DNA from: Candidatus Omnitrophota bacterium
GTDB lineage: Bacteria > Omnitrophota > Gorgyraeia > Zapsychrales > JANLHA01
Reading direction: 5' to 3'
DNA: 64,000 nt
Assembly (NCBI GenBank): GCA_029560465.1
Contig: JAKQKX010000016.1
Coordinates: 206,221 to 270,220 of the forward strand
Shown here in pieces: positions 28,642 to 59,356 of this stretch. Made by a program: the position numbers and the translations under genes. The notes under the pieces are model-generated. The model saw only the letters and a list, made by a program, of their open reading frames with translations. It did no database searches and was not told the origin of the DNA. The stretch's first letter is position 1. Each line of letters starts with the position of its first letter.

Positions 28642-28662
28642 ACCCGTTTTGGGATAAAAAGC

Positions 28663-29697: not shown

Positions 29698-29803
29698 CGC
29701 GGGCCCACGGGCGAGACGGGTACGGCTTCCTCGCTTTTCACCTTGAATCCCTCCTGGAAATCGTGTAGAATGAAAGCAATTTTTCTTATTATAAAATATT
29801 ATT

Positions 29804-30730: not shown

Positions 30731-30754
30731 TGGCGGCAGCGTATTATAAGGATA

Positions 30755-32937: not shown

Positions 32938-34248
32938 ATGAATATTTCAATCATTGGATGTGGTTATGTGGGGCTGGTGACGGGGGTGTGTTTGGCCTCG
33001 ATCGGGCACAGGGTTCTTTGTGTGGATAGTGACCAGGAAAAGATCAAGAAATTGAAGGCGGGCCATGTGCCGATTTACGAGCCCGGCCTGGATGCCCTTA
33101 TGCGTGAGGCGGTGAAGAAAGGTCGCTTGAGTTTTGGCGGGTCGGTCCGGGAGGCGACACAGAAGACGGACGTCATCTTTATCGCCGTGGGAACGCCGTC
33201 CAAAAAGAACGGGGAGGCGGATTTAACGTATGTTGAGAATGTCGCCCGGCAGATCGCCATGAGCATGACAGCTTATAAATTGATTATTGAAAAGTCCACC
33301 GTGCCGGCGGAAACGGGAAAGCGCATTGAACGCACGATCCGGCTGAATTTGCCTAAACGCAGTAAGACGATCCCTTTTGACGTGGCGTCCAACCCGGAAT
33401 TTTTACGGGAAGGCTCAGCAATCGAAGATTTTATGAACCCGGACCGGGTGGTGATCGGGGTCGAGTCCGCCCGGGCTGAGAAAATTTTGCGCGAAATTTA
33501 TCAGCCGCTAAACCCGCATATCGTGGTGACAAATATTAATTCCGCGGAAATCATTAAGCACGCGTCCAATTCGTTTTTAGCCACAAAAATTTCTTTCGCG
33601 AACGCTCTGGCGCAGATCTGCGACCGCGTCGGCGCGGACGTCCTGAAGGTGGCCGAGGGCATGGGGTATGATAAAAGAATTGGGAAAAGTTTTTTGAGGG
33701 CCGGAATCGGGTACGGCGGCAGTTGTTTCCCCAAAGACGTTGACGCCTTTATCCGCCTTAGCGAACGGAGCGGGTACCAGTTTAACCTTCTCAAGGAAGT
33801 CCGGCAGGTGAATGAGGAACAGAAAGCTATTTTTGTCCGGCTGATTGAGGACAAGCTGTGGATTTTGAAAGATAAAGTGATCGGCGTCCTGGGGCTGGCT
33901 TTCAAGCCGGACACGGACGACATGCGCAATGCCCCGTCCCTGGATATCATCGCCGCTTTGCAGAAAGAAGGGGCGAAAGTGAAAGCCTATGACCCACAGG
34001 CGATGGGGCAGGCCAGGAAAGTGCTTAAGAAAGTGACTTTTTGTAAAGATATTTACGCGTTAGCCAAGGGCTGTGACTGTTTGTTGTTGCTGACCGAATG
34101 GGGAGAGTTTAAGAAAATAAATTTTAAGAAAGTTAAAACGCTTATGAGGCAAGCTGTTATTTTCGATGGGAGAAATTTGTATCACGCAGACCGTTTGAAC
34201 GATTTGGGGTATGAATATTATGGCATCGGCCGGGGCGTTTCTGTTTAG
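32938..34248 (+). CDS. ugd: UDP-glucose 6-dehydrogenase
   Basis: IIGCGYVGLVTG Rossmann, catalytic GGSCFPKD, and the UDPG_MGDP_dh C-terminal domain. Confidence 0.8.
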   Translation: MNISIIGCGYVGLVTGVCLASIGHRVLCVDSDQEKIKKLKAGHVPIYEPGLDALMREAVKKGRLSFGGSVREATQKTDVIFIAVGTPSKKNGEADLTYVENVARQIAMSMTAYKLIIEKSTVPAETGKRIERTIRLNLPKRSKTIPFDVASNPEFLREGSAIEDFMNPDRVVIGVESARAEKILREIYQPLNPHIVVTNINSAEIIKHASNSFLATKISFANALAQICDRVGADVLKVAEGMGYDKRIGKSFLRAGIGYGGSCFPKDVDAFIRLSERSGYQFNLLKEVRQVNEEQKAIFVRLIEDKLWILKDKVIGVLGLAFKPDTDDMRNAPSLDIIAALQKEGAKVKAYDPQAMGQARKVLKKVTFCKDIYALAKGCDCLLLLTEWGEFKKINFKKVKTLMRQAVIFDGRNLYHADRLNDLGYEYYGIGRGVSV

Positions 34249-34266
34249 GAGACCGAAAGGGGAGAA

Positions 34267-35571
34267 ATGATGGCGGCTTCTTTGAAAAGAAAGATTGAAT
34301 CCCGGAAGGCGAAAATCGCTGTCTTGGGCCTGGGCTATGTGGGGCTTCCCTTGGCCGTTAATTTCGCCAAGCAAGGATATTCCGTCCACGGGCTCGATAA
34401 AGACCAGGACAGGGTTGATCATGTCCGGGAGAGGGTGAGTTATATTTCTGATATCCCGACCAAGGATGTCGCGGCTGTCGTTCAAGCCGGGCGCCTGGAT
34501 GCGGGAATGGACTTTTCCGTGATCTCGGACATGGATGTCCTGATCATTTGTGTGCCGACCCCGCTTAAAAGCAAGTACACGCCGGATATCTCGTATATTG
34601 TGGACGCCGTCAGGACCATCCGGCGTTATTTACGGAAAGGCACGCTGATTGTTTTGGAAAGCACGACCTATCCCGGCACCACCAAAGAGCTCATCCTGCC
34701 GGAGATTGAAAAATCCGGGCTGAAGAGCGGAAAAGATTTCTTCCTGGCGTTCTCTCCGGAGAGGATCGATCCCGGCAACAGCCAGTATGACGTGACAAAA
34801 ATTACCAAGGTCGTGGGCGGCGTCACGCCGGAAAGCGGGCGGCTGACGAAGGCCCTTTATGAAAAGATTATCTGTAAAGTCCATTGCGTGGCGACGGCGG
34901 AAGCGGCGGAGATGACCAAGCTCCTGGAAAACTCCTTCCGTATCATTAATATAGGATGGATTAATGAGTTGGCGATGATGTGCCACAAGTTGGGCGTCGA
35001 TATCTGGGAAGTGATTGAGGCGGCCAAGACCAAGCCTTTCGGCTTTATGCCTTTCTATCCCGGCCTGGGCGTGGGCGGACATTGTATCCCGGATGACCCG
35101 CTTTATTTATACTGGAAGGCTAAACAATACGGGTTCAGCTCGAAATATATTAAAATATCCGCAGACACGAATTCATACATGACGCAATACGCCGTTGAGC
35201 GCCTGCGTGATATTCTCGCCGGGAAAGGGAAGGATATGAAGGGGGCCCGAATTTTTATCCTGGGGGTTACGTATAAAAAAGACGTCAAGGACCTTCGCAA
35301 GTCGCCGCCGCTGAAATTGTTACAACTTTTGCAGGCGGCGGGGTGCCAGGTCGACTATCACGACCCGATGATCCCTTATCTGGATTTCCCCGGCATCCAT
35401 CTCACAGCTGTGCCGTTAACGCCCAAAACAGTTAAGGCGAGTGACTGCATCGTGATCGCGACGGACCACACAAAAGTTGATTACGCCATGGTCCGCCGCC
35501 ACGCGAGGCTGATTTTTGATATCCGTAATGTTTATAAAAATACGCCGCACACGAAGGTGATAAAACTGTAA
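34267..35571 (+). CDS. UDP-N-acetyl-D-mannosamine/glucosamine dehydrogenase (WecC/WbpA family)
   Basis: [23 protein letters not shown], nucleotide-sugar dehydrogenase family. Confidence 0.7.
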
Positions 35572-35593
35572 ATCAATAGCGAAGGAGTCTGCC

Positions 35594-36541
35594 ATGGGGT
35601 CGAGGAAGAAGGTCGCTGTCGTCACGGGAGGAGCCGGATTCTTGGGAAGTCACCTGTGTGATCGTTTGCTTAAGGAAGGTTGCCGGGTTTTCTGCGTGGA
35701 TAATTTTATTACCGGCAGCGAACAGAATATTCAGCATTTGTATGACAATAAATATTTCCGCCTCATCCGGCATGATATTTCCAAGGAGATACGGATGCCG
35801 GGGCCGGTTGATTATATCCTGCATTTTGCCTCTCCGGCGAGCCCGATTGATTATTTGTTGTTCCCTATTCCCACGTTAAAGGTGGGGTCGCTGGGGACAT
35901 ACAACACTTTGGGGCTGGCGAAATTGAAAAAGTCCCGGTATCTGTTAGCCTCGACATCAGAGGTTTACGGGGACCCGCAGGAGCACCCGCAGAAAGAAAC
36001 GTATTGGGGGCATGTCAATCCCATCGGGCCGCGCGGTGTTTATGACGAGGCTAAACGGTTCGCGGAAGCCATGACCCTGGCGTATCACCGGTACCACAGG
36101 TTGGACACGCGGATCGTGCGGATTTTTAACACCTACGGTCCGCGGATGCGGATCAAAGACGGGCGTGTTGTCCCCAATTTTATTTTTCAGGCGCTTCATC
36201 ATAAACCCCTTACGGTTTACGGGACCGGACAGCAAACCCGGTCGTTTTGTTTTTACACGGACCTTCTGGAAGGCATTGTGAGGCTTCTTGGTTCCGGCTA
36301 TACTGGCCCCGTGAATATCGGGAATCCTGAAGAGTTTACTATTTTGCAGTCGGCAAAATTGGTGTTAAAATTGTCGGGGTCAAAGTCCAAGATTGTGAAG
36401 AAACCCCTTCCCAAAGATGACCCTCAGCAGCGGCGGCCGGATATCTCATTGGCCAAACGCCTGTTGAAATGGTCACCCCGGGTTTCCTTGGAAAAGGGCC
36501 TGGCCGAAACAATAGAGTGGTTTAAACTGCAAAAAATTTGA
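35594..36541 (+). CDS. UDP-glucuronate decarboxylase (UDP-xylose synthase)
   Basis: [16 protein letters not shown]...VDNF.TG, YDEAKR. UXS-type extended SDR. Confidence 0.75.
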
Positions 36542-37536
36542 TATGCGCCATGAATGAAAACCATCAAAACGAGATTGGCACGGAACAGCTTTGGGACCTT
36601 TACCGGGTCATGGCTCGCATCCGCCTGGTCGAATTAAAGATCGAAGAGTTGTATCATCTGGATGACATGAAAACACCCATTCATCTCTCCTTGGGAGAGG
36701 AGGCCGTTGCGGCGGGCGTGTGTGCCCATTTACGTTTGGATGATTTTGTCTTTAGCAATCATCGCAGTCACGCGCATTATCTGGCCAAAGGCGGCGACCT
36801 TAAAGCCATGATCGCCGAGTTGTATTGTAAAGAAACCGGTTGCGCCAAAGGCCGTGGCGGATCCATGCATTTGATTGACACGGCCGTCGGCCATCTGGGG
36901 TCTTCCGCGATCGTGGGCGGGAGCATCCCTCACGCGGTGGGGGCGGCGTTGGCGTTTGTGATGCAAAACAAAACGGCTGTTGCTGTCTCCTTTTTCGGGG
37001 ACGCAGCCAGCGAGGAGGGGGTTTTCTTCGAAAGCATGAGCCTAGCGGCGCTGAAGCGCCTGCCAGTCGTTTTTGTCTGTGAAAATAATTTCTATTCCGT
37101 GTGTTCGCATATTTCCGCGCGCCAGCCGAATCCGGATATCGCCATGCGTGCGCGGGCTTTTGATATCCCTTCTGTGAAAGTTGACGGGATGGATGTGGGG
37201 CAAGTTTTTATGAAAGCAGGAGACGCTATTCATCACGCCCGTCAGGGGCGCGGGCCGTATCTTTTGGAATGCCGTGCTCAGCGCTGGCGCGCGCACGCGG
37301 GTTCCGGTGACCCGCTCCGGGAAAAATACCGCAAGCCGGAAGATTTAGAACCGGATTGGATGCGAGATCCTTTGTCCGAATTGGAACAGGTTTTGCGTTC
37401 CCGGCGGGGTATAGGGGAGCAGACGATTCGTGATATAACCGGAACATTGAATGCGGAAATTGACGAAGCGTTCTATGCGGCTCAATCCGGCCCGCTTCCC
37501 CGGAAAGAAGACCTTAAAAAATATCTATTCGCGTGA
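36538..37536 (+). CDS. TPP-dependent 2-oxoacid dehydrogenase E1 component, alpha subunit
   Basis: [14 protein letters not shown]...NN.Y TPP-binding fold. ATGA-coupled to the previous gene. Confidence 0.75.
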
Positions 37537-37539
37537 ACT

Positions 37540-38580
37540 ATGCCTTGGACAAAATTACAGATTGAAAGAGAAGAACCCGTTTTCGATGAAAACGCCGGGC
37601 AGGATGTCCGGAAGTTGAGTTTCGGGGAAGCCCTGCGGGAAGCGTTAGACCAGGCTCTTCAGAGAGACCCCCGCGTGTATGCCATGGGGCAGGGCATTGA
37701 CGATCCCGGTGGGATTTTTGGGACAACCCTCGGGTTGCAGGAAAAATACGGGCCGCAGCGGATTTTCGACGCCCCCTTAGCCGAAGAAGCGACGATCGGC
37801 ATGGCCATCGGGTCGGCTATGGCGGGTTTAAGGCCGGTGTCTATTCATAACCGCCCTGACTTCCTGATGATGGCCATGGACCAGATCGTCAATGCCGCGT
37901 CAAAATGGTGTTATATGTTTTCGGGCCAGGTGCCGATCCCGCTTGTTATCCGGGCCTGCATTGGCCGGGGCTGGGGCTCGGCCGCCCAGCATTCGCAGTC
38001 TTTGCACGGGCTGTTCACGCATGTCCCGGGCTTGAAAATTGTCATGCCCAGCACCGCTTATGATGCTAAGGGGCTGTTTATCGCCAGTGTGGCGGATAAT
38101 AACCCTGTGATATTTATAGAGCACCGGTGGCTCTATCAGCACAAGGGGTATGTCCCGCAGGATGTGTATGCGGTCCCCTTTGGCCAGGGTACGGTTAAAA
38201 GGCCAGGCCGGGACATCACGGTGCTCGCGATATCGCACATGGTGATCGAGTCCCTCCGGGCGGCGGAACAGTTGGAGAAACAAGGGATCAGCCTAGAGGT
38301 CCTTGACCCCCGAACCCTGTGCCCGTTTGACGAAGAGATTCTTCTTAAGTCGCTTGCGAAAACCGGAAAGCTGATTGTCGCGGATGTTGACTGGAAGACT
38401 GGCGGGTTCGCGGCGGAAGTCGTGGCCCTGGCCGCGGAAAAAGGGTTTGGCTATCTTAAGAAACCCCCGGTGCGGGTGTGCCTTCCCGATATCCCGACGC
38501 CGGCCAGTTATGTCCTGGAAGAGGCTTTTTATCCCGGGGTGGCGGACATTGTCGCCGCGGCGGAACACCTGATGGCATGA
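37540..38580 (+). CDS. TPP-dependent 2-oxoacid dehydrogenase E1 component, beta subunit
   Basis: Transketolase-like pyrimidine-binding and C-terminal domains (GEEATIGMAIG, FIEHRWLY, ISLEVLDPRTL). Confidence 0.75.
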   Translation: MPWTKLQIEREEPVFDENAGQDVRKLSFGEALREALDQALQRDPRVYAMGQGIDDPGGIFGTTLGLQEKYGPQRIFDAPLAEEATIGMAIGSAMAGLRPVSIHNRPDFLMMAMDQIVNAASKWCYMFSGQVPIPLVIRACIGRGWGSAAQHSQSLHGLFTHVPGLKIVMPSTAYDAKGLFIASVADNNPVIFIEHRWLYQHKGYVPQDVYAVPFGQGTVKRPGRDITVLAISHMVIESLRAAEQLEKQGISLEVLDPRTLCPFDEEILLKSLAKTGKLIVADVDWKTGGFAAEVVALAAEKGFGYLKKPPVRVCLPDIPTPASYVLEEAFYPGVADIVAAAEHLMA

Positions 38581-38643
38581 ATTTCCATGGCCTCAGGGCC
38601 CGGCGGGAAATTTGTAAAATACACGTATACAGGGGAGTGAAAC

Positions 38644-39576
38644 ATGAAAATACTGGTGACCGGCGGAGCCGGTTATATCGGCTCGGTTCTTGTGCCGCGC
38701 CTGTTGGCGGAGGGCCATGAGGTTGTGGTGCTGGATAATTTTATGTACAACCAGACACCGCTCTTGGACTGCTGTCATGACCCCCGGCTCACGATTGTGC
38801 GGGGTGATGCGCGGGATAAGGTGCTTTTGGAACGTTTGATGAAAGACGCGGATGCTGTTTTTCCCATGGCCTGTCTGACGGGCGCGCCCTTGTGCAAGAA
38901 AGACCCTTGGGCGGCGCAGACGGTATTGCTGGATGCGGTTCGACTGGTCATAAGCTTGAGCGGCCGTGATCAGAGGATCGTTTTCCCGACCACGAATAGC
39001 GGATACGGGGTGGGGCAGAAAGATCATTTTTGCACCGAAGAAACGCCCTTAAATCCGATTTCATTATACGGGCAGCTCAAGGTTCAGGCGGAAGAAGCTG
39101 TTTTGTCTTCGGGCCGGGGGGTCACGCTGCGGTTGGCCACCGCTTTCGGGATCAGCCCCCGTATGCGCCTGGATCTTTTGGTGAACGATTTTACTTACCG
39201 GGCTGTGAATGACCGTTTTATTATTTTGTTTGAGGCGCATTTTAAACGGAATTTTATCCATGTCCGCGATGTGGCCAAAGCATTTATTCATAGTTTGAAG
39301 AATTTCGAGTCTATGAAGGGCGAACCTTATAACGTCGGGTTAAGCGACGCGAACTTGAGTAAAAAAGAACTCTGCGATGAAATCCGCAAACAGGTCCCGG
39401 AATTTTATGTCCTGGAGTCTGCGATCGGAGAAGATCCGGATAAACGGGATTATGTCGTTTCCAATGAAAAGATTGAAAAAACCGGATATCGTCCGGATGT
39501 TTCCCTGCCGGCCGGCATCGGCGAGCTGATCAAGGGATATCAGATTATTAAGAGAAACCAGTTCGCCAACATTTAA
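38644..39576 (+). CDS. NAD-dependent sugar epimerase/dehydratase (extended SDR)
   Basis: ILVTGGAGYIGS Rossmann, Y-x3-K (YGQLK). Confidence 0.65.
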   Translation: MKILVTGGAGYIGSVLVPRLLAEGHEVVVLDNFMYNQTPLLDCCHDPRLTIVRGDARDKVLLERLMKDADAVFPMACLTGAPLCKKDPWAAQTVLLDAVRLVISLSGRDQRIVFPTTNSGYGVGQKDHFCTEETPLNPISLYGQLKVQAEEAVLSSGRGVTLRLATAFGISPRMRLDLLVNDFTYRAVNDRFIILFEAHFKRNFIHVRDVAKAFIHSLKNFESMKGEPYNVGLSDANLSKKELCDEIRKQVPEFYVLESAIGEDPDKRDYVVSNEKIEKTGYRPDVSLPAGIGELIKGYQIIKRNQFANI

Positions 39577-39739
39577 CCGCCGGCCGGGTTCCTGAAACGC
39601 GTGATGCCTTGTGTTTCTGGAAGAAGCTTATAATTTGTGGTGAGGAGAAAGGCCGCGCGGATTTCAGAGACGGCCTTGACCGCCTCGCGCATTCAACATA
39701 TAATGACCACACGGTTTATTAAAGAATCGGGGAGCGCCC

Positions 39740-41245
39740 ATGACGGACATTGTACTGATAAAAGCGAATAACCAGAAAAAAGCCTATCAGGACCTCAGCC
39801 GGGATTTTACCGGGCTGGAACCGCCGTTGTGGATCATTTTAACCGCCGCCTTCCTTCGGGAACAAGGGTTTCAGGTTCAGGTGATTGATGCTGAAGTGGA
39901 GAATTTTGACGCGCGGGAAACCGTTCAGAGGGCTTTGGCCTACAAACCCCTTTTAGTGTCTGTTGTGGTTTCCGGCACCAACCCATCCGCCTCAACGATC
40001 AATATGCCCGGCGCCAGTGAATGTTTGAAAGAGCTGAAGCGGAGGCAGCCGCAGTGCCCGGCGGCGATTTCAGGGCTTCATCCCTCCGTTTTGGCGGCGC
40101 AGACGATGCAGGAAGAGGTCGCGGACTTCTTGTGCGAGGGCGAGGGCTTCACCACGTACGCCCAATTGCTGAATCTCTTAAAATCGGGAAAAACCCTCGG
40201 AGATGATTTCACGGTTGACGGGTTGTGGTATAGAAAAGGCGAACAGATTATTTCCAACGCGCGGGCTGAGAATATCCCGGATTTGGGCGTACTGCCGATG
40301 CCCGCCTGGGACCTCTTGCCGATGCAGAAATACCGCGCGCATAACTGGCACGCATTTGATGACGTGGAGAAACGCCAGCCTTACGCGGTTATTTACACCA
40401 GCCTGGGCTGCCCGTTTCATTGCAGTTTCTGCTGTATTAACAGTATTTTCGGGGGGCCCGGCATCCGTTATCGTCCGCCGGAGAAGGTCGTTGAAGAAGT
40501 GGATTATTTGGTCCGGAATTACGGTGTGAGGCATATTAAGATTCTGGATGAAATGTTCGCCCTGAAGATCAGCCATGTGGAGGAACTGTGCGACCGGTTG
40601 ATCGCCTTGGGGCACGATTTGAATTTCTGGGTCTATGGACGGATTGACACGGTGAAAGAGCCCATGTTTAAAAAGATGAAACAAGCCGGCATCAACTGGA
40701 TCGCTTACGGGATCGAAGCGGGGAGCAAGAAAGTCCGTGAGGGGGTTTCAAAGGGGCGGTTCGATCAGGACCAGATTAAACGGGTTATTGAGATGACGCA
40801 TGCCGAGGGAATTCATATTGTCGGGAATTTTATCTTCGGTCTGCCGGATGACGACCTTGAAACGATGGGGGAAACTTTGACTCTGGCCAAAGAATTGAAT
40901 TGTGAGTACGGGAATTTTTACTGCGCCATGGCGTATCCGGGTTCGAAGCTGTATGATGAAGCCGTCGCCCAAGGGGTCCCTCTGCCGGACACGTGGTCCG
41001 GGTTTGCCCAGTTCAGCGAGGACACGTTGCCTCTTCCGACCAAATACCTTTCCAGCGGGGAAGTCCTGCGCTTCCGGGACAAGGCGTTTCAGGAGTATCA
41101 CACCAGCGGACCGTATCTGAATATGATTGAACACAAGTTCGGAATGAAAACGAGGAAACATGTTGAGGACATGTGCGCGATGAAGTTGAAACGGAAGCAT
41201 TATGATGACACGGAAGGCATCCATTTTCATCAGGAAGTGGACTAA
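39740..41245 (+). CDS. B12-binding-domain radical SAM enzyme (class B)
   Basis: N-terminal cobalamin-binding-like domain, CPFHCSFCC (CxxxCxxC) radical SAM core. Confidence 0.75.
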   Translation: MTDIVLIKANNQKKAYQDLSRDFTGLEPPLWIILTAAFLREQGFQVQVIDAEVENFDARETVQRALAYKPLLVSVVVSGTNPSASTINMPGASECLKELKRRQPQCPAAISGLHPSVLAAQTMQEEVADFLCEGEGFTTYAQLLNLLKSGKTLGDDFTVDGLWYRKGEQIISNARAENIPDLGVLPMPAWDLLPMQKYRAHNWHAFDDVEKRQPYAVIYTSLGCPFHCSFCCINSIFGGPGIRYRPPEKVVEEVDYLVRNYGVRHIKILDEMFALKISHVEELCDRLIALGHDLNFWVYGRIDTVKEPMFKKMKQAGINWIAYGIEAGSKKVREGVSKGRFDQDQIKRVIEMTHAEGIHIVGNFIFGLPDDDLETMGETLTLAKELNCEYGNFYCAMAYPGSKLYDEAVAQGVPLPDTWSGFAQFSEDTLPLPTKYLSSGEVLRFRDKAFQEYHTSGPYLNMIEHKFGMKTRKHVEDMCAMKLKRKHYDDTEGIHFHQEVD

Positions 41246-41272
41246 TTCAACCCAGAATCCGAGAGGTTCATT

Positions 41273-42268
41273 ATGATTATCAGCCGCACGCCGTTTCGAA
41301 TATCATTTTTTGGCGGGGGGACGGATTATCCGGCCTGGTATGAAAAGCACAAAGGGGCGGTGCTGGCGACGACGATTGACAAGTATTGTTATATCACCAC
41401 CCGTTATTTACCGCCGTTTTTCAGCCATAAATCCCGTATCGTTTATACCAAAACCGAACTGGTCAAGAAGCTTTCTGAGATCGACCACCCCGCTGTCCGG
41501 GAGGTTTTAAGATTTTTAAAAATTCATCAGGGGATTGAAATCCATCATGACGGCGACCTCCCCGCCCGCACCGGGCTGGGGTCCAGCTCTTCGTTTACGG
41601 TGGGGCTTTTAAACAGCCTTTACGCTCTTAAGGGGGTTATGCCGACCAAAGAGCGCCTGGCCAAGGAAGCCATTTATATCGAGCAGGAGATGTGCCGTGA
41701 TAATGTCGGGTGCCAGGACCAGGTCCTGGCCGCGTATGGCGGATTCAATTTTATCGAGTTCGGGGGCTCTAACCATCTTCAGGTCCGGCGCGTGACGTTC
41801 CGCAGCGACAAGATCAAGAAGCTGGAAAAACATCTGATGCTTTTTTTTACGGGTTTTGCCCGGATGGCCTCGGAGATCGCCGCGCATCAAATCAGGAACA
41901 TCCCGAAGAAAACGGCCGAACTCAAAACCATGCATCAAATGGCTTATCAGGCGATTGATATCCTCAATGCGAACGACATCCTGGCGTTCGGGAAACTCCT
42001 CGACGAATCATGGAAGCTGAAGCGGAGCCTCTCGGATAAGATTTCAACGCCGTTTGTGGATGACATGTATGGGACGGCTAAAAGGGCCGGTGCGGTCGGG
42101 GGGAAGCTGCTCGGCGCGGGAGGCGGGGGGTTCCTGCTTTTATGCGTTCCTCCGGCGCGGCAGAAAAGCGTGCGAGAAAAACTTAAGAAATCTCTGTTGA
42201 TCCCGTTTAAGTTTGAAGATTTGGGTTCGCAGATTATCTTTTATCAGCCCTATAGCGGAAAAGTTTAG
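41273..42268 (+). CDS. hddA: GHMP sugar kinase, D-glycero-alpha-D-manno-heptose-7-phosphate kinase-like
   Basis: RTPFRISFFGGGTD N-terminus and GHMP motif PARTGLGSSSSF, as in HddA. Confidence 0.65.
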   Translation: MIISRTPFRISFFGGGTDYPAWYEKHKGAVLATTIDKYCYITTRYLPPFFSHKSRIVYTKTELVKKLSEIDHPAVREVLRFLKIHQGIEIHHDGDLPARTGLGSSSSFTVGLLNSLYALKGVMPTKERLAKEAIYIEQEMCRDNVGCQDQVLAAYGGFNFIEFGGSNHLQVRRVTFRSDKIKKLEKHLMLFFTGFARMASEIAAHQIRNIPKKTAELKTMHQMAYQAIDILNANDILAFGKLLDESWKLKRSLSDKISTPFVDDMYGTAKRAGAVGGKLLGAGGGGFLLLCVPPARQKSVREKLKKSLLIPFKFEDLGSQIIFYQPYSGKV

Positions 42269-42296
42269 CACTTGAGGGCGAGGGCCGGGGAGACAC

Positions 42297-43040
42297 GTGG
42301 CGCATACGGGCACGACAGACGTGGTGGTTTTGGCCGGGGGGCTGGGGACCCGGCTCCGTTCCGAGATCGGGCTAACTCAAAAAACCATGGCGGCCATCGG
42401 GGATCGGCCGTTTTTGTTTTTTATGCTGAAGCGGCTCGCCTGGCAGGGCTTTCGCCGGATCATCCTGTGCACCGGTTTTCAGGCCCAGGCGGTGGAAGAA
42501 TATTTCAAAAGGGAACCTCTCGGGCTGGACATTGTTTTTTCAAGGGAGGACACCCCTCTGGGGACGGGCGGCGCTTTTAAAAAGGCGGCTAGTTTGGTCC
42601 AGGGCGACCTGTTCCTGCTCTTGAACGGGGATTCGTTGTGTGACATGGATTACGCGGCCCTGCTGGATTTTCACGCCCGGAAACAGGCGTTGGTGACGCT
42701 GACCCTGTCTGAGGTCCCGCCCCGCATGGATACGGGGTCCGTTATCATGAATTCCTCGGGTGCCATTGTGGATTTCCGGGAGAAATCGAATAGGGAAGCC
42801 CGGGTCCCCTCGGGGCACCACGTTTATGTGAATGCCGGCGTTTATTGTTTTAACAGGAGAATTTTTTCTTTTTTCCCACCGGGGGACGTGTTTTCCCTGG
42901 AAAACGATTTTTTCCCTTCTTTGCTCACGGAACGGGTTTACGGTTTTGTCATTAAGAAGGGTTTTTTGGATATCGGGACGCCGCAGCGCTACGCTGAGGC
43001 CAGAAGAGATTTGAAGTTAACGGGCTTGGGAGAAGAATGA
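42297..43040 (+). CDS. hddC: Sugar-1-phosphate nucleotidyltransferase (heptose-1-P guanylyltransferase-like)
   Basis: VVLAGGLGTRL at the N-terminus, short single-domain NTP-transferase, adjacent to an hddA-like gene. Confidence 0.6.
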   Translation: MAHTGTTDVVVLAGGLGTRLRSEIGLTQKTMAAIGDRPFLFFMLKRLAWQGFRRIILCTGFQAQAVEEYFKREPLGLDIVFSREDTPLGTGGAFKKAASLVQGDLFLLLNGDSLCDMDYAALLDFHARKQALVTLTLSEVPPRMDTGSVIMNSSGAIVDFREKSNREARVPSGHHVYVNAGVYCFNRRIFSFFPPGDVFSLENDFFPSLLTERVYGFVIKKGFLDIGTPQRYAEARRDLKLTGLGEE

Positions 43041-43094
43041 GGTTCCTCCCTGGAAAGTCCGACGGGCGTAAATTTAGAGAAAGGCAGGGATCCC

Positions 43095-44267
43095 GTGGCA
43101 ACGCATAAAGAGCAAAGCATCGAAACCAAAACGCAGTACCAGGTGCCGTTTGGCACTGTTTCTATCACTCCCGAAGCCCGGACGCTTATCGATAAAGCTT
43201 TAGAAACGAAATTTGTAACCCGCGGGAAATACGTCGCGGAATTTGAGCAACTGTTTGCCCGGCTTTTTAAACGGAAATACGCCATCGCGGTTTCCAGCGG
43301 CACGGACGCCGACGCCTTGTCCCTTGCGACGCTTTATGACTATGGGGCCCGCCGGGGTGATGAAATCATCGTGCCGGCTTTGTCTTTCGTCGCCACCGGC
43401 AACGCTGTTTTTCAGGCGGGTTTTAATCCGGTCTTCGTGGACGTTAAGCGGGAAACGTTGAATATTGACGTCGACAAAATTGAAGTGGCCATCACCCAGC
43501 GCACCCGCGCCATTATGCCGGTGCATTTGATGGGCAAACCGGCTGATATGGACAGGATCATGGCGATCGCTGAAAAGCACAAGCTGTACGTGATTGAAGA
43601 CGCGGCTGAAGCCCACGGCGCGGAATATAAAGGGCGGCTCATCGGCACGCTCGGGCACATGGCGGCTTTCAGCCTTTACGCCGCACATATCGTGACCTCG
43701 ATCGAGGGCGGGATGGTGATTACGGATGATAAACAGATGGCGGAAGCGGTCCGCTCGTTGCGGAACCATGGCATTGTCAACAAGTTTGAATTCCGGCGTA
43801 TCGGGTTTTCGGCCAAGATGAACGAAATAGAAGCCGCGGTCGGAATCGGCAATATCAGGATTTTTGAGGAAATCCTCAACACCCGGAGGCGCAATCTCCT
43901 GTATCTTATCGAACGCTTTCGGAAGTTTGACGAGTATTTTATCAGCGTCAAAGAAGACGAGGGGGAAAAAATCGGCCCGCACGCTTTTTCTATCATCCTC
44001 AGGGAGGGGCTGAATTTCACCAAAGACGAGATTGTCGCAGACCTGGACCGGCAGGGGATCGATTCCCGCAACCTGTTTTATTCCATGCCGACGCAGTGCC
44101 CGAGTTATGCGTTTTTGGGGCACACCCTGGGGGACTTCCCGGAAGCCGAATATTGCGCGGATCAGGGTTTTCATATCGGCATTCATCAGGATATCGGGTT
44201 GGCGCAACTCGATTATGTCGCCGAGGGCGTTGAGGCATTTCTAAAATCCAAAGGGCTTTCCGCGTGA
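43095..44267 (+). CDS. DegT/DnrJ/EryC1/StrS-family PLP-dependent sugar aminotransferase
   Basis: AVSSGTDA, IIVPA.SFVAT, and catalytic Lys region SLYAAHIVTSIEGG. Confidence 0.75.
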   Translation: MATHKEQSIETKTQYQVPFGTVSITPEARTLIDKALETKFVTRGKYVAEFEQLFARLFKRKYAIAVSSGTDADALSLATLYDYGARRGDEIIVPALSFVATGNAVFQAGFNPVFVDVKRETLNIDVDKIEVAITQRTRAIMPVHLMGKPADMDRIMAIAEKHKLYVIEDAAEAHGAEYKGRLIGTLGHMAAFSLYAAHIVTSIEGGMVITDDKQMAEAVRSLRNHGIVNKFEFRRIGFSAKMNEIEAAVGIGNIRIFEEILNTRRRNLLYLIERFRKFDEYFISVKEDEGEKIGPHAFSIILREGLNFTKDEIVADLDRQGIDSRNLFYSMPTQCPSYAFLGHTLGDFPEAEYCADQGFHIGIHQDIGLAQLDYVAEGVEAFLKSKGLSA

Positions 44268-44311
44268 GATCCTGATGCCACCCGGGCCTTCGGCTGCGGG
44301 GGATTGACTTT

Positions 44312-45481
44312 ATGCGTGTCGCGATTAACTGCCGATCATTTCTCAAAGAAAATAAGACGGGTATTGGCCGGTACGCCTTTAACCTGGTCCGCTCCTTGGG
44401 GGAGATTGACCCGGACAACGAGTACTGGCTTTATGCCCGGAAAAGGATATTGGACTTTAGGAGGCGGTTGCCGCGGTTCTCTTCCGGCAAGTTTAAGGTC
44501 AAGGCGGATTATTTTAACCGCGGGACGGATGCGGTCCTCCGCGGGGCGGATGTGTATCATTCCCCGAGCCTTGATTTTATCGGTTTCACATCCGGTAAAG
44601 TCGTGGTCACGGTGCATGACCTGATTTACAAGGTTTTCCCGCAGGGGCACACCCCGGAGACGCGTGATATTTCCGAGAGGCAGATGCGGGAGGTTGTCCG
44701 CAAAGCCGATCATATTATCTGCTGTTCGCAGGCGACGCTGGATGACCTGGTGCGGCATTTTCCTGTGGATAAGGCGCGGCTGTCGGTGATCCACCAGGGG
44801 GTTGACAAGGGTGTCTTTTTCCCTCTGCGCGGCCAGGCTTTGGCCGCCGCCCGGCGTGTCGTTCAACAAAAAGGCGTGGACGGCCCTTTCCTGCTTTTTG
44901 TGGGGACACTGGAGCCGCGGAAGAATCTTCTTCACCTGCTGGAGGCGTTTGAGCGGGTTAAAGCGCGCGGGACTTTTCGCGGCCGGTTGGTTGTCATTGG
45001 CATGCGGGGGTGGATGATGGAACAGCTGCAGACCCGTTTGGCGGGCATGAAAGCGCGGGCGGATGTCATTTTGCCGGGGTTCGTGACAGACGAGGAACTG
45101 CGCTGTTTTTATAATTGCGCGGATGTTTTTATTTTCCCTTCCTTTTATGAAGGCTTTGGTTTTCCGGTCCTGGAAGCGTTTTGTTGCGGGGCGCCGGTGA
45201 TCACATCACGGGGATCGGCGTGCGGGGAAGTGGCGGCCGGCGCGGCGGAAATGATTGATCCGGAATCCCCGGCGGAGATCTCGGAAGCCATCCGCCGTAT
45301 CGTGCACGATGAAGGGTGCCGCCAGCGGCTGAAAGCTGCTGCTTTAAAAAGAGCGGAGGATTTTTCTTTCCGCAAGACGGCGGAGGAAACGTTGCGCGTT
45401 TATCAGCGGGTTTTTAAAGGAAAGGGCGGCCACCCGTCCTGTTTTAGCCGGGGCATCCCCAAAGACAAGGAGTTGCAATGA
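44312..45481 (+). CDS. Glycosyltransferase family 4 (GT-B)
   Basis: C-terminal EGFGFPVLEAFCCGAPVITS E-x7-E motif. Confidence 0.75.
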   Translation: MRVAINCRSFLKENKTGIGRYAFNLVRSLGEIDPDNEYWLYARKRILDFRRRLPRFSSGKFKVKADYFNRGTDAVLRGADVYHSPSLDFIGFTSGKVVVTVHDLIYKVFPQGHTPETRDISERQMREVVRKADHIICCSQATLDDLVRHFPVDKARLSVIHQGVDKGVFFPLRGQALAAARRVVQQKGVDGPFLLFVGTLEPRKNLLHLLEAFERVKARGTFRGRLVVIGMRGWMMEQLQTRLAGMKARADVILPGFVTDEELRCFYNCADVFIFPSFYEGFGFPVLEAFCCGAPVITSRGSACGEVAAGAAEMIDPESPAEISEAIRRIVHDEGCRQRLKAAALKRAEDFSFRKTAEETLRVYQRVFKGKGGHPSCFSRGIPKDKELQ

Positions 45482-46320
45482 AGATCAGCGGTTTTACGAT
45501 CGCCCGCAATGCGGTTAAATTCCAGTACCCCTTAGTGGAATCTATCCGGTCTGTCCTGCCGTTGTGCGATGAAATGATTGTGAATGTCGGGGATTCTGAA
45601 GACGACACCCTCGGGCTTGTCCGGTCTATCCGCGACGCCAAGATAAAAATTTTACAAAGCCGCTGGGATATGTCCTTGGGTAAAGAGGTCCTTTCCCAAC
45701 AGACGAATTTGGCCTTGGCCGCTTGCCGCGGCGACTGGGCGGTGTATCTGCAGTCGGATGAAGTTTTGCATGAAAAAGACCTCCCCTCCCTTCGGAAACG
45801 CATGGAGGGGTGTTTGAGCGAACCCGGGGTGGACGCCTTAAGGTTCCGCTGGCTGCATTTTTACGGAAGTTATTACCGTTACCGGATCGACCGGGGCTGG
45901 TATCAGAAGCAGGACCGGATCGTCCGTAATAACGGGCAGGTCGAATCGTTTGGCGATGCCTATGGGTTCCGGAGGAAAGACGGCCGTCCCCTGGGGCGTA
46001 AGAACACCGGATGCCTGTTATACCATTACGGGTGGGTTCACTCCGGGGATGTCATGGCGCAGCGCCGGAGCAACGCCAAGGAGATCGGGTACGCGGCTTT
46101 GAGCCCGCAGGATAACCGGGATCAGTATTCTTTCGGGGCCCTGACCCGGTTTCCCGCTTATTTCGGGTCTCATCCCGCGGTGATGCGGGAGAAGGTTTTG
46201 TCTCATGCGTTGAGCATGTCGGACCTTCAGACGATCAACCGGACGTTCTGGTGGCACCCAATGAAAATTTTTAAAGTCCGGTACAAAACATTTAAACGCT
46301 ATAAAAAAAGTTTATCATAA
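45478..46320 (+). CDS. Putative glycosyltransferase (GT2-like)
   Basis: ATGA-coupled. MKISGFTIARNA...DEMIVNVGDSEDDT is a GT-A-like N-terminus. Confidence 0.4.
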   Translation: MKISGFTIARNAVKFQYPLVESIRSVLPLCDEMIVNVGDSEDDTLGLVRSIRDAKIKILQSRWDMSLGKEVLSQQTNLALAACRGDWAVYLQSDEVLHEKDLPSLRKRMEGCLSEPGVDALRFRWLHFYGSYYRYRIDRGWYQKQDRIVRNNGQVESFGDAYGFRRKDGRPLGRKNTGCLLYHYGWVHSGDVMAQRRSNAKEIGYAALSPQDNRDQYSFGALTRFPAYFGSHPAVMREKVLSHALSMSDLQTINRTFWWHPMKIFKVRYKTFKRYKKSLS

Positions 46321-46333
46321 ACGCGGCCAATGA

Positions 46334-47827
46334 TTGAGCCCTATGTTGCGAGGTCAATTTATACAATCCGCCTTTAACGGCGGAAAAGCTGTTGTGCCGT
46401 TGTTTTTCTGTTGCTTCCTCTTCGGAGGGGGCTGGGCGCAGCCGCTTTCCTGGGCCCAGGATGTTTTGGACCCTCCCTCCGGGCAGAACGCTGCCCGGGG
46501 CGGGGCCCAACAGTTTTTTACTTACGGCCCTCAGGGAAAGGAAGGCTCCGCCGCGTTGGTCCCCAACGAGGCGCTCCGGGAAGGGATATTCTTAAAGCGC
46601 AGCCAGCATTCCGGCCAGTTAACTAAAAAGGCGATCCAACTCATGCAACAGGGCGACCTTGAAGCCGGCCGGCAGGTCCTTTGGGATGCGCTTGCATACG
46701 CGCCCAATAATTCCATGGCGCACTCTTTGCTAGCCCAGATTTATTTTTGGCGGGGGCAGGACAATGAGGCCCTTGCCATCCTGGAACAGGCCGGGCGGTA
46801 TCAGGTCAAGGGAGACCTTATATACGGATTTTTAGACCGGGCCTTGTCTTTCTTTCGGCAAAAGAACCGGAACACGCCGGAGCTTCCGCTCGTGTCCGTC
46901 GCGCGCTATAAAGGGAACAAACAATGCGCGATTTCCTTTAATTTTGACGACGGATCCAAGACCGTCTACACCAAGGTGTTGCCGGTTTTTGACAGGTACG
47001 GCTATAAAGCGACGGTGCTGATTAACCCGGGATGGACCGCGGACCAGCCGGGCAACCCCTATTACGGCAGTTGGGAGGAATGGAAAGATGCTTCGGAGCG
47101 CGGGCATGAGATCGGGAACCACTCCATGAATCATCGTTATTTGATGCAGGTGCCGGATGATGTTTTTGACAGCGAGATTCATGAAAGCTATTATTTGATT
47201 TCGGAAAAGATCGGAACGCCTCCACGGTCTTTCGCGTTCCCGTTTGACCAGTCAACTCCAGAGATGATCAGCAAAGTCAGCGAGTTTCACCCCGCTATCC
47301 GTGACCGGGAGTACTTGTCGCGGCTTTCTGATAATCTTTTCTTGCCGGTTTACGGGGGCGATAAATTTTCCGCTGCCGTCGGCCGGAAACTTATTGATTT
47401 GGTGTTGGTCAAGCGCCTCTGGGTGGTGGCTGAATGCCACGCCATGCAGACTGAAGAGGTCATGACATTCAAGCCGATCACCGAGGAATTCCTGGAAGAC
47501 CATTTGGCGTATATTAAAGAGAATGAAGAACAGATATGGGTGGACACGTTCGCCAACACCTATAGTTATATAGCGGAACGCCAGGCCAGCCGTTTCAATA
47601 TCCTGGAGTCCGGAGACGGGCGCCTTGTTTTTGTCCTGGATCACGATTTGGACAAGTCATTTTATCAGGTGCCGCTGACCGTTGTCGTGAATGTTTCTCC
47701 CCAAGCGCCGTCCTCGGCCGGGGCTCAGAGGGAGGATGGACGGGCTTTATCCGTCGCTATCCGTGGGGCATGTCTCATCCTCGATGTTCTCCCGGGGCCT
47801 GAACCGGTCACGGTTTTCTGGGATTAG
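46334..47827 (+). CDS. Polysaccharide deacetylase (NodB homology) with N-terminal TPR region
   Basis: Signal peptide and TPR-like helices. NodB motifs FNFDDGSKT, HEIGNHSMNH. Confidence 0.65.
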   Translation: MSPMLRGQFIQSAFNGGKAVVPLFFCCFLFGGGWAQPLSWAQDVLDPPSGQNAARGGAQQFFTYGPQGKEGSAALVPNEALREGIFLKRSQHSGQLTKKAIQLMQQGDLEAGRQVLWDALAYAPNNSMAHSLLAQIYFWRGQDNEALAILEQAGRYQVKGDLIYGFLDRALSFFRQKNRNTPELPLVSVARYKGNKQCAISFNFDDGSKTVYTKVLPVFDRYGYKATVLINPGWTADQPGNPYYGSWEEWKDASERGHEIGNHSMNHRYLMQVPDDVFDSEIHESYYLISEKIGTPPRSFAFPFDQSTPEMISKVSEFHPAIRDREYLSRLSDNLFLPVYGGDKFSAAVGRKLIDLVLVKRLWVVAECHAMQTEEVMTFKPITEEFLEDHLAYIKENEEQIWVDTFANTYSYIAERQASRFNILESGDGRLVFVLDHDLDKSFYQVPLTVVVNVSPQAPSSAGAQREDGRALSVAIRGACLILDVLPGPEPVTVFWD

Positions 47828-48277: not shown

Positions 48278-48505
48278 ACCGCTGTTTTCCGCCCGGCGAA
48301 AGGGCCATGATTGCGCTTATGCCTAAGAAGAAAAAAAAGGTCATCTGGCACAAGAAACAATCCCGGTTTATCCCCTCCGCCTCCCTGAAAGGGCAGCATC
48401 CCGCTCCCGGAGGTGGGGGGCCAGCGTTACCGGCGGGGTCCTCCGCGCGCGGGAAGGGAGATTTTAAACAGAGCCTTGTTGAAAAGATCAGGCGGGCCGC
48501 GCAGA

Positions 48506-55962: not shown

Positions 55963-56026
55963 CCGGCTTTGCAAAGGGGCCTCCTGGAGCCTCGGGGTTT
56001 TGACCTGATCGGGGAAACATTTTTTC

Positions 56027-58579: not shown

Positions 58580-59356
58580 ATGGCCAAAATCCCGCTAACA
58601 GTTGTTATTCTTGCCAAGAATGAGGAAGCCGTTATTGGCGCCTGTTGTGAAAGCGTTTTTGGCTGGGTTGATGAAATTCTTGTTGTGGACGATACCAGCT
58701 CCGACCACACGGTTGATATTGTAAAACGTTATACAAGTCGGGTTTATACCCAGGCCATGTTGAACGAAGGGCGGCACCGAAACTGGGGGTATGCCTTGGC
58801 TCAAAACGATTGGGTTTTGAGCCTTGATGCCGATGAGCGGGTTTCTGAGGGGCTCCGGGACGAGATGTGTTCGGGGCTTTTTAAAACCGGCACTGAAAAA
58901 GCCTGGGCCATCCCGATTAAAACTTATATTGGTGACTATTGGGTCCGTTACGCTGGCTGGTATCCGGCCAGTAAGATTCGGCTTTTTGATAAGAATTTCT
59001 TCCGTTATGAAGAAGCGGAAGTGCATCCCAGGGCTTTTGTGGATGGGCCGGTCGGGGAACTGCGGCAGGCGATTGTTCATCTGGGATATCCTGATTTTGA
59101 ACATTTTTTGGCCAGTTTGAACCGCCAGACGACATTAGAAGCACGGAAATGGGCCCGGACGGGGGTCAATATGCCTTTGGGCCGTGCAGTTCGCCGCACG
59201 CTGGACCGTTTTATGAGGTCCTATTTCCGGAAAAGAGGCTATAAAGACGGGTTTATGGGATTTATGGTGGCGTTTTTTGCCGCATTATATCAGTTGATGA
59301 GTTATGCCAAATATTGGCAAATAAAGAAAAATGAAATAAATCATGAAAGGTTATGA
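58580..59356 (+). CDS. Glycosyltransferase family 2 (LPS-core-type)
   Basis: LTVVILAKNEE...DEILVVDDTSSDHT, DxD-type GT-A. Confidence 0.7.
   Translation: MAKIPLTVVILAKNEEAVIGACCESVFGWVDEILVVDDTSSDHTVDIVKRYTSRVYTQAMLNEGRHRNWGYALAQNDWVLSLDADERVSEGLRDEMCSGLFKTGTEKAWAIPIKTYIGDYWVRYAGWYPASKIRLFDKNFFRYEEAEVHPRAFVDGPVGELRQAIVHLGYPDFEHFLASLNRQTTLEARKWARTGVNMPLGRAVRRTLDRFMRSYFRKRGYKDGFMGFMVAFFAALYQLMSYAKYWQIKKNEINHERL

Follow-up and report, generated by a model that had tools for sequence, protein, structure and literature searches.

Which sugar is made by the long row of carbohydrate genes at positions 32938-47827 of a 64,000-nucleotide stretch of contig JAKQKX010000016.1 from a Candidatus Omnitrophota bacterium (the whole stretch is called the window here)? 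A reading made from the letters alone, referred to below as the sequence-only reading, had described fourteen genes serving one pathway, although the names it gave added up to 13. The ORF listing likewise contains 13 consecutive co-directional open reading frames (ORFs) of 247-501 aa on the forward strand (g1-g13; Table 1), and no fourteenth forward-strand ORF of at least 80 aa within 32938-47827. The family names given earlier were borne out by Pfam and NCBIfam profiles for all 13 genes, whereas the gene contexts of relatives replace the single pathway with three modules: g1-g3 for nucleotide-sugar supply, a heptose cassette comprising g4-g10, and the lineage-specific genes g11-g13. We consider it somewhat better than an even bet that g4-g10 builds a nucleotide-activated, carbon-branched and deoxygenated heptose. 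The whole is a composite, probably lipopolysaccharide (LPS)-associated envelope-glycan locus of an uncultured Omnitrophota-like bacterium.

The cassette (36538-44267) encodes the E1 alpha and E1 beta subunits of a thiamine diphosphate (ThDP)-dependent enzyme, a Cj1427-like short-chain dehydrogenase/reductase (SDR), a B12-binding radical S-adenosylmethionine (rSAM) enzyme, an HddA-like kinase, an HddC-like nucleotidyltransferase and a DegT-family protein with a His at the catalytic Lys position. Orthologues of g4, g5, g6, g7, g8 and g10 (50-76% identity) are contiguous in four loci of relatives: L014, a Joint Genome Institute (JGI) metagenome contig of Omnitrophota-like synteny in which the cassette directly follows lptD; L015, from a metagenome-assembled genome (MAG) of Sedimentisphaerales (Planctomycetota); L016, from an Elusimicrobia MAG; and L021, a metagenome contig. 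These four were found by tracing E1 alpha homologues (62-68% identity) to their contigs; a scan of genome contigs with g7 as the sole query gave nine loci, and no cultured organism with the cassette came to light. In L015, L016 and L021 the E1 pair is immediately adjacent to the Cj1427-like SDR gene, the stop codon of E1 beta overlapping the SDR start codon, and in L014 and L020 the two are one SDR gene apart. A g7-type rSAM gene and a g8-type kinase gene stand near the E1 pair, and the nucleotidyltransferase and His-type DegT genes are usually present too. No gene for UDP-glucose dehydrogenase (UGD) or UDP-xylose synthase (UXS) adjoins the cassette in L014, L015 or L016, which implies that the E1 pair belongs to the heptose cassette and that g1-g3 are an add-on; L020 has the same arrangement of UGD, nucleotide-diphosphate (NDP)-sugar dehydrogenase and UXS as the window.

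The heptose assignment starts from g6. Called an SDR epimerase before, it is instead an orthologue of the Cj1427-type C4-dehydrogenase, matching PDB entries 6VO6 and 6VO8 over its full length with 400.8 bits (E 4e-119; next structure 83 bits) and sharing 55% identity with Campylobacter jejuni Cj1427 over 309 aa without a gap. The SDR catalytic Tyr-x3-Lys motif is present, YGQLK aligning with YGIDK. The 6VO6 chain sequence retrieves a C. jejuni protein cluster of 313 aa at 96% identity, and the retrieved protein is encoded between an Fcl-like SDR gene and genes for a GHMP kinase, an SIS-domain protein and a nucleotidyltransferase, next to capsule export genes, a neighbourhood that is the known capsule heptose locus. 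Cj1427 makes GDP-4-keto-heptose, and its tightly bound NAD(H) is recycled with 2-oxoglutarate as oxidant (PMC10680097).

Furthermore, the kinase g8 finds its best PDB matches among heptose-phosphate kinases (WcbL 4USK, 130 bits; 3K85; C. jejuni 4N3O, 119 bits) and matches fucokinase with 55 bits; its score with the NCBIfam HddA model is 148.5 bits against a cutoff of 600. The nucleotidyltransferase g9 scores higher with the mannose-1-phosphate guanylyltransferase model (159.9 bits; cutoff 440) than with HddC, and is the least conserved cassette member (35-39% identity across phyla). Both proteins share only some 30% identity with the characterised HddA and HddC enzymes. Supply of the precursor is reflected in the relatives: SIS/GmhA-like, GmhB-like and transaldolase genes accompany the cassette in L015, an SIS gene lies inside a cluster of nucleotidyltransferase, kinase, Cj1427-like and E1 alpha/beta genes in L018 (Nitrospirae), and transaldolase and GmhB-like genes stand beside an rSAM gene of 44% identity in L013. 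The content of these three loci supports a heptose origin. The window itself encodes a GmhB-like phosphatase 11.5 kb downstream of the locus, which passed the HAD-IIIA model and reached 161.5 bits with NF006506 (cutoff 178); judged by these profiles, it is likely to be a shared step in GDP-heptose supply. Together, Cj1427 orthology, the heptose-kinase-like g8 and the heptose genes of relatives uphold the heptose derivative that had been among the products first predicted.

An amino sugar, by comparison, had been expected from g10 as a DegT aminotransferase. In the alignment, FSLYAAH of g10 stands opposite FSFFGNK, the Schiff-base Lys motif of GDP-perosamine synthase 3BN1, and because His replaces the Schiff-base Lys, 3-deoxygenation rather than an amino sugar is predicted. 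This Lys-to-His change is the hallmark of the pyridoxamine phosphate (PMP)-dependent 3-dehydratases ColD and RfbH/E1. The His is conserved in eight cassette copies, including the orthologues in L005, L007, L008, L015 and L016 and the distant DegT proteins of L010 and L012, the L012 copy showing a Ser-His pair as in ColD; the second DegT protein of the window (57075-58316) retains the Lys. By its motif, g10 is probably a ColD-type sugar 3-dehydratase. It has no Cys-rich insert and the locus no E3-like reductase, so that the features of the RfbH/E1 subtype are lacking and the ColD subtype is indicated, if g10 is a dehydratase at all. The DegT proteins of L015 (18658-19851) and L016 (16214-17437) do carry a Cys-rich insert (CKCKVC...C and CQCEVC...C, respectively) whose pattern recalls the Fe-S site found in 3-dehydrases of the RfbH/E1 type.

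It is quite improbable that g10 works as an aminotransferase despite the missing Lys and yields a septacidin-like 4-amino-4-deoxy-heptose. Its best PDB match is indeed GDP-perosamine synthase (224 bits, compared with about 176 bits for ColD), yet the exchange of the Schiff-base Lys for His in every cassette copy, the ColD-like Ser-His pair in L012, RfbH as the top NCBIfam match of g10 (252.6 bits) and the RfbH/E1-like insert in L015 and L016 all speak for a dehydratase. Cook et al. are said to have found in 2009 that ColD requires the double exchange S187N/H188K to turn into an aminotransferase, which also counts against this possibility. 4-Aminoheptoses as such do occur, in septacidin (PMC9978623). 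For the 3-dehydratase assignment of g10 there is an experimental counterpart: Cj1427 combined with a pyridoxal phosphate (PLP)/glutamate-dependent C3-dehydratase gives GDP-3-deoxy-4-keto-heptose (PMC10680097).

A 3-deoxy-4-keto NDP-sugar is the kind of substrate that accepts a ThDP-bound acyl anion from a 2-oxo acid at C4 in the acyl-branched LPS sugars, with YerE acting in yersiniose and ErwE in erwiniose biosynthesis (PMC9306805). PDH-like (pyruvate dehydrogenase-like) E1 alpha/beta pairs, termed alpha-KADH2, place pyruvate-derived two-carbon branches on NDP-keto sugars of actinomycete antibiotics, as with Plm8/9 (PMC4802897), EvdU5/EvdS3 (PMC10338323), and AlmD and KbDH (PMC12247030). The ThDP enzyme of our locus is of the E1 type, and no single-chain acetolactate-synthase-like (flavo)enzyme of the YerE type is encoded there. 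In family models g4 stays below the PDH_E1_alph_y cutoff (300 bits; cutoff 394) and matches human PDH E1 alpha with 160 bits, while g5 stays below that of PRK09212 (308.7 bits; cutoff 321); their orthologues in the same cassette of L014-L016 are 62-68% and 66-73% identical, respectively. By Pfam and NCBIfam domain content, the window contains no lipoyl, E2 or E3 gene, and the pairing of E1 alpha and E1 beta amid NDP-sugar genes without E2 or E3 recurs, with cassette context in eight loci. We propose by analogy that g4/g5 is a sugar C-branching enzyme of the alpha-KADH2 type, a likeness drawn from domain content and context, the E1 references in the PDB being those of PDH and branched-chain 2-oxo acid dehydrogenase (BCKDH) only.

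The logic of the cassette extends to the distant loci L010, L011, L012 and L018, although their two-subunit ThDP enzymes are of other kinds. Distant loci such as L010-L012 retain the SDR, rSAM, kinase, nucleotidyltransferase and His-type DegT genes. In L010 and L011 (Pirellulales and Planctomycetota), a divergent E1-like pair occurs together with a class I/II aminotransferase, an HMGL-like synthase and as many as four B12-rSAM genes. The ThDP enzyme of L012 (Nitrospirae) is a split transketolase, which fits since transketolases are a third class of sugar-branching ThDP enzymes (PMC12247030).

Where the branch is placed is the point on which a pentose alternative turns. Here, g1 would provide UDP-glucuronate, g3 would release some UDP-4-keto-xylose, and g4/g5 would acetylate C4 of the pentose as in eurekanate, with g6 and g8-g10 making a separate, unbranched, Campylobacter-like modified heptose. 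The precedent is EvdS6, a UXS-like enzyme that releases UDP-4-keto-xylose, EvdU5/EvdS3 having been proposed for eurekanate (PMC10338323); the 4-bp overlap of g3 and g4, and the order UGD, NDP-sugar dehydrogenase, UXS, E1 alpha, E1 beta in L005, L007 and L020, agree with such a route. However, the E1 orthologues of L014-L016 (62-68% identity) lie beside the Cj1427-like SDR, rSAM and kinase genes with no UGD or UXS gene adjacent, and g3 matches human UXS1 (364 bits), which releases reduced UDP-xylose (PMC10338323). We regard pentose branching as improbable.

The rSAM enzyme g7 would act on the branched heptose. Its cluster motif is C224-x3-C228-x2-C231, and its best NCBIfam scores, with HpnJ (154 bits; cutoff 578) and BchE (144 bits; cutoff 481), are far below the cutoffs. 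The AlphaFold2 model (pLDDT 91.9) is closest in fold to the sugar 1,2-diol dehydratase AprD4 (TM 0.71/0.78), followed by the cobalamin enzymes TsrM, MgmA, CysS, OxsB and TokK. An attempt to read the chemistry of g7 from the predicted structure did not settle it, the matches spanning a dehydratase, methylases and a ring-contracting enzyme, and C-methylation and any other radical chemistry appear about evenly balanced. In L018, where the stretch read contains no rSAM gene, a C-methyltransferase of class I is encoded together with a short-chain reductase, a weak hint that g7 is a methylase. In a bolder reading, g7 would be not a methylase but an enzyme allied to its nearest curated families, HpnJ and BchE, which form or rearrange C-C bonds; it would join the side chain of the heptose (C6/C7) to the acyl branch that the ThDP enzyme installs at C4. 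The product would be an envelope sugar of nine or ten carbons, of a class not described so far, with a carbocycle-fused, bicyclic skeleton comparable to bradyrhizose or caryose. We consider this a long shot; if true, the sugar would be widespread in the LPS of Omnitrophota, Planctomycetota and Elusimicrobia. A direct link to bradyrhizose was dropped, as its candidate cluster is centred on a dTDP-glucose 4,6-dehydratase, with no further description of the genes (PMC4743980), and the predicted 3-deoxygenation misfits a galactose-like ring; bradyrhizose serves here as an analogy only. A heptose origin of erwiniose and caryophyllose was dismissed as well, the published route proceeding from CDP-3,6-dideoxy-4-keto-glucose and longer 2-oxo acids with YerE-like enzymes (PMC9306805).

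Placed in sequence, these activities would constitute a heptose version of the yersiniose/paulomycose logic, an analogy to which we give moderate credence. Heptose 7-phosphate would come from a GmhA encoded elsewhere and be phosphorylated at C1 by g8; the GmhB-like phosphatase would then take off the 7-phosphate and g9 would produce GDP-D-glycero-D-manno-heptose. Oxidation of C4 to the ketone by g6 would be followed by removal of the C3 hydroxyl by g10, acting as a His-type, ColD-like PMP enzyme, to give GDP-3-deoxy-4-keto-heptose. In the next step, g4/g5 would decarboxylate pyruvate and attach the resulting two-carbon acyl anion at the ketone of C4, forming a 4-C-acetyl tertiary alcohol, and g7 would tailor the branched product. 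We place g10 before g4/g5 because ColD chemistry requires a free C4 ketone. Glycan assembly would fall to g11, g12 and possibly the downstream gene d1, and periplasmic de-N-acetylation to g13. Family membership, the Lys-to-His change and the conservation of the cassette are observed; substrates, step order and product are what we infer from them. Of the tailored sugar foreseen in the sequence-only reading (amino-, C-branched or C-methylated, possibly a heptose derivative), the C-branched heptose is thus retained and the amino group is not.

A part of these functions would also suffice without any branching. In that case, a plain Campylobacter-style GDP-heptose (4-keto, 3-deoxy, reduced) would be made, and the E1 pair and g7 would act off the sugar skeleton, for instance on a non-carbohydrate substituent. 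The set of kinase, nucleotidyltransferase, Cj1427-type enzyme and C3-dehydratase is a known pathway (PMC10680097), the Bacillota loci L017 and L019 have Cj1427-like and kinase modules without E1 or rSAM genes, and on the 13.6-kb contig L013 the rSAM gene (44% identity) occurs without a detectable E1 gene. On the other hand, the E1 pair is tightly linked to the Cj1427-like SDR gene in L014, L015, L016, L020 and L021, the window locus has no E2/E3, acyl carrier, phosphonate (phosphoenolpyruvate mutase) or amide-forming genes, and its cassette lacks the C4 reductase that would complete an unbranched heptose. An unbranched product is therefore unlikely in our estimation.

Several points weigh against the branched-heptose proposal itself. 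The scores of g8 and g9 lie so far below the HddA and HddC cutoffs that a sugar other than D-glycero-D-manno-heptose is possible. No GmhA (SIS-domain protein) was found among the scanned ORFs of the window. The resemblance of g4/g5 to genuine PDH E1 is still about typical for the family, and the translational coupling of the UXS gene g3 to g4 in the lineage of the window also fits a pentose acceptor. With a diol dehydratase as its closest fold and HpnJ and BchE as its best profiles, g7 has an ambiguous tailoring role. Finally, a reductase that could act on the branch carbonyl, be it YerF-like or Fcl-like, is absent from the window cassette; the ketone would either stay or be reduced by g6, whose Campylobacter homologue binds NADH tightly, the latter option being speculation.

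Table 1. Features of the sugar locus and associated elements, in window coordinates.
Feature	Position	Strand	Length	Basis or remark
g1, UDP-glucose 6-dehydrogenase	32938..34248	+	436 aa	all three UDPG_MGDP_dh domains
g2, UDP-N-acetylhexosamine (HexNAc) 6-dehydrogenase, WecC/Cap5O type	34267..35571	+	434 aa	TIGR03026, 427 bits
g3, UDP-glucuronate decarboxylase / UDP-xylose synthase	35594..36541	+	315 aa	human UXS1 match
g4, ThDP-dependent E1 alpha	36538..37536	+	332 aa	PF00676, 200.7 bits
g5, E1 beta	37540..38580	+	346 aa	PF02779, 114 bits; PF02780, 118 bits
g6, Cj1427-type GDP-heptose C4-dehydrogenase orthologue	38644..39576	+	310 aa	PDB 6VO6/6VO8 match
Sigma-70-like promoter match	39676-39704	+		TTGACC, 17 nt, TATAAT; g6-g7 gap; 11/12 consensus
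g7, class B (B12-binding domain) radical SAM enzyme	39740..41245	+	501 aa	PF02310, 58.8 bits; PF04055, 70.2 bits
g8, HddA-like GHMP sugar kinase	41273..42268	+	331 aa	PDB heptose-phosphate kinase matches
g9, HddC/ManC-like sugar-1-phosphate nucleotidyltransferase	42297..43040	+	247 aa	NCBIfam HddC, 139.9 bits (cutoff 300)
g10, DegT-family protein, His for PLP Lys	43095..44267	+	390 aa	PF01041, 336.9 bits
g11, GT4 glycosyltransferase	44312..45481	+	389 aa	PF00534, 111.6 bits; PF13439, 59.1 bits
g12, GT2-like	45478..46320	+	280 aa	PF00535, 25.9 bits (cutoff 23.3), weak
g13, tetratricopeptide repeat (TPR) + NodB-type polysaccharide deacetylase	46334..47827	+	497 aa	PF01522, 75.4 bits; TPR_19, 35.1 bits
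d1, multi-pass membrane protein	48413..50014	+	533 aa	about 8 hydrophobic segments; outside the interval
GmhB-like heptose 1,7-bisphosphate phosphatase	59353..60021	+	222 aa	outside the interval

The row of genes represents a conserved arrangement, as opposed to ORFs lined up by chance, given that the synteny of all 13 genes is preserved in the related MAG loci L005 and L007 (protein identity 55-95%) and that the gene order recurs in metagenomes. Several metagenome assemblies in the European Nucleotide Archive (ENA) contain contigs whose E1 alpha protein is identical and whose genes are ordered as in the window, with ABC, GGDEF, ROK and LptD genes upstream, then g1-g6 and, where the contigs end, the first part of g7. 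Among genomes, the nearest are MAGs that carry the label Candidatus Omnitrophota or "Planctomycetales". Intergenic distances in the row range from -4 to 163 bp, with 4-bp overlaps at g3/g4 and g11/g12. The promoter match before g7 keeps both hexamers unchanged in four genomes (the window, L005, L006 and L007) although the intergenic DNA around them diverges; this suggests a putative promoter from which g7-g13 could be transcribed separately from g1-g6. L005 (~9830-9975) and, at the corresponding site, L006 have some 140 nt inserted between the promoter-like site and the rSAM start codon; the insertion is missing in the window and L007, and its fold is only modestly better than that of shuffled sequences (z = -1.79). 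A riboswitch or other RNA in the locus was considered and dropped: Rfam gave no match in the window at the gathering score, nor did the L005 g6-g7 spacer with its insertion match any family at E<=1. There are no tRNA genes in the window.

The module upstream of the cassette, g1-g3, is a separate add-on in the lineage of the window that supplies UDP-glucuronate, UDP-xylose and a UDP-HexNAc uronate. TIGR03026 gives 480 bits for g1, which scores 559 bits with TuaD (cutoff 700). For g2, the best PDB matches are the UDP-ManNAcA dehydrogenase 4R16 (238 bits) and Cap5O (205 bits), the substrate epimer being ambiguous. The extended SDR g3 matches human UXS1 structures with E 5.5e-108 and ArnA with 78-80 bits. 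At the other end, orthologues of g11 occur only in the close relatives L005, L007 and L008. The PF00535 match of g12 spans residues 18-111 only; no membrane segment is predicted, no PDB relative and no ArnC match were found, and the protein is unrelated to the polyprenyl-phosphate GT2 of about 235 aa in L010, L016 and L021. Given its hydrophobic, signal-like N-terminus, g13 is probably periplasmic. Gene d1 follows g13 in L005 (68%) and L007 (51%); its PMT_2 score of 22.5 bits lies under the cutoff of 26.1, and we tentatively regard it as a GT-C (PMT_2-like) transferase. Searches of the PDB and Pfam returned nothing useful for g12, for d2 (50105-50749) or for a 107-aa ORF at 47954-48277. The content of UGD, decarboxylase, DegT, GT2, NodB and GT-C proteins had raised the Arn system, which adds 4-amino-4-deoxy-L-arabinose (L-Ara4N) to lipid A; it was rejected as g3 is closer to UXS than to ArnA, g10 lacks the Lys, no formyltransferase is present, and g12 has neither a membrane segment nor an ArnC match.

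A ROK kinase gene and lptD lie upstream of g1, and the housekeeping genes clpB, hrcA, dnaK, dnaJ and accD farther upstream. The stretch directly 5' of the sugar genes (27340-32899) encodes GAF-GGDEF, GGDEF, ROK kinase and LptD proteins; all four genes are found in L001, L014 and L020, and the ROK kinase and lptD in L005 and L007. Parts of this order recur in relatives that are fairly distant, and they place a ROK sugar kinase, together with a pair of diguanylate cyclases, at the envelope locus. Downstream, at 54895-60021, a second sugar cluster encodes a ManC-like guanylyltransferase, a GT9 protein similar to heptosyltransferase II (133.9 bits; cutoff 134.6), the Lys-containing, canonical DegT aminotransferase mentioned above (416 bits), a GT2 protein and the GmhB-like phosphatase. 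It probably serves LPS core biosynthesis and is a possible source of shared heptose precursors. The two sugar clusters are separated by minus-strand genes (50798-53790) for a 478-aa MORN-repeat protein, weakly matching the Leptospira LIC20035 adhesin family, and then a protein of 519 aa that matches no family and has about six membrane segments. ORFs of 739, 462, 265 and 991 aa at 59-2278, 3777-5165, 5517-6314 and 7498-10473, respectively, have no above-threshold Pfam match, the 991-aa ORF showing a sub-threshold VIT match only.

Among the relatives, an Fcl-like SDR gene occurs in L010, L014, L020 and L021 and the polyprenyl-phosphate-type GT2 gene of about 235 aa in L010, L016 and L021; the window has neither. 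The cassette of L010 (4129-15589), like that of L011, is more elaborate, with an HMGL/homocitrate-synthase-like enzyme, four consecutive B12-rSAM genes, a flavin reductase, a NUDIX hydrolase and the polyprenyl-phosphate-type GT2, a content that hints at a dedicated 2-oxo acid as donor and at several radical steps in tailoring. At 7851-13465 in L017 and L019 (a Bacillota MAG and a JGI contig), a Cj1427-like SDR (67% to Cj1427) and an HddA-like kinase are encoded with a 465-aa protein of no assigned family, a methyltransferase and a GT4 protein, an SLH-domain protein lying nearby. Lacking E1 and rSAM genes, this set resembles a heptose module for the S-layer glycan of a Gram-positive cell.

No cassette protein reached an NCBIfam equivalog cutoff. 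Searches returned 7,940 proteins for E1 alpha at E<=1e-40 and 7,117 for the rSAM enzyme at E<=1e-60. Among the best 120 of each, identity to the window proteins does not fall below 54-56%, and at least 21 contigs of at least 10 kb, recognised by their equal length, are common to the E1 alpha and rSAM matches listed. Among these matches, the close homologues of g4 and g7 are all unnamed MAG or metagenome proteins. The close homologues thus do not all map to one characterised pathway, and the earlier statement that no known product can be assigned holds. A full-text literature search found no paper joining manno-heptose with radical SAM and thiamine or cobalamin. The parts are of known kinds, and their combination and setting are undescribed. 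ThDP-dependent sugar branching is known in two settings, by YerE-like enzymes on CDP-dideoxyhexoses in LPS and by PDH-like heterodimers in actinomycete antibiotics (PMC12247030). Through this locus, the range of the PDH-like class would come to include a heptose acceptor and the envelope glycans of Gram-negative phyla that are uncultivated, and the class would be coupled to a B12-rSAM enzyme; as predicted from the genes, the heptose acceptor, the PDH-like enzyme in an LPS-type locus and the coupled rSAM step would be the new elements. As the cassette is abundant in metagenomes, a sugar not yet described may be common on the surface of Omnitrophota and their neighbours. With its seven enzymes, the cassette is small enough to be reconstituted in vitro, and the starting substrate, GDP-heptose, has already been synthesised and purified (PMC10680097). 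We regard the cassette as a worthwhile, not a revolutionary, target for sugar biochemists.

The closest known system on the heptose side is the capsular GDP-heptose pathway of C. jejuni, consisting of GmhA2, HddA, HddC, Cj1427, the HS:5 C3-dehydratase and Fcl-like reductases (PMC10680097). The window shares with it an HddA-like kinase, an HddC-like transferase, the Cj1427 orthologue and a candidate PLP/PMP-type 3-dehydratase, and some cassette relatives additionally share an Fcl-like SDR or an RmlC-like epimerase. In contrast, the Campylobacter loci contain no ThDP enzyme and no rSAM enzyme, and the window cassette has no GmhA, C3/C5 epimerase or C4 reductase. For the radical step, class B rSAM enzymes are established in sugar tailoring, with the C-methylase GenK, the diol dehydratase AprD4 and HpnJ for ring contraction. 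Like these, g7 combines an N-terminal B12-binding-type domain with a CxxxCxxC core, and its fold is closest to the sugar-acting AprD4, although it is only about 20% identical to AprD4 and far below the cutoff of every curated family.

With respect to the branch, yersiniose A and erwiniose follow the same logic, in which a 4-keto sugar undergoes PMP-dependent 3-deoxygenation and ThDP-dependent carboligation at C4 for a Gram-negative envelope (PMC9306805). The acceptor is a CDP-3,6-dideoxyhexose in those pathways and probably a GDP-heptose in the window cassette. Moreover, YerE and ErwE are single-chain, acetolactate-synthase-like enzymes, whereas the window has a PDH-like E1 alpha/beta heterodimer and a B12-rSAM enzyme, and no YerF-like reductase. 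The alpha-KADH2 enzymes (AlmDI/DII, Plm8/Plm9, AviB1/AviB2, EvdU5/EvdS3 and KbDH-alpha/beta) are two-subunit and PDH E1-like without E2 or E3, as in the window, with pyruvate as the expected donor of a two-carbon branch (PMC4802897; PMC10338323; PMC12247030). They belong to secondary-metabolite clusters of Actinomycetota and act on deoxyhexose and pentose nucleotides, whereas the pair described here is found in Omnitrophota, Planctomycetota and Elusimicrobia, in an LPS-type locus near lptD and together with heptose genes.

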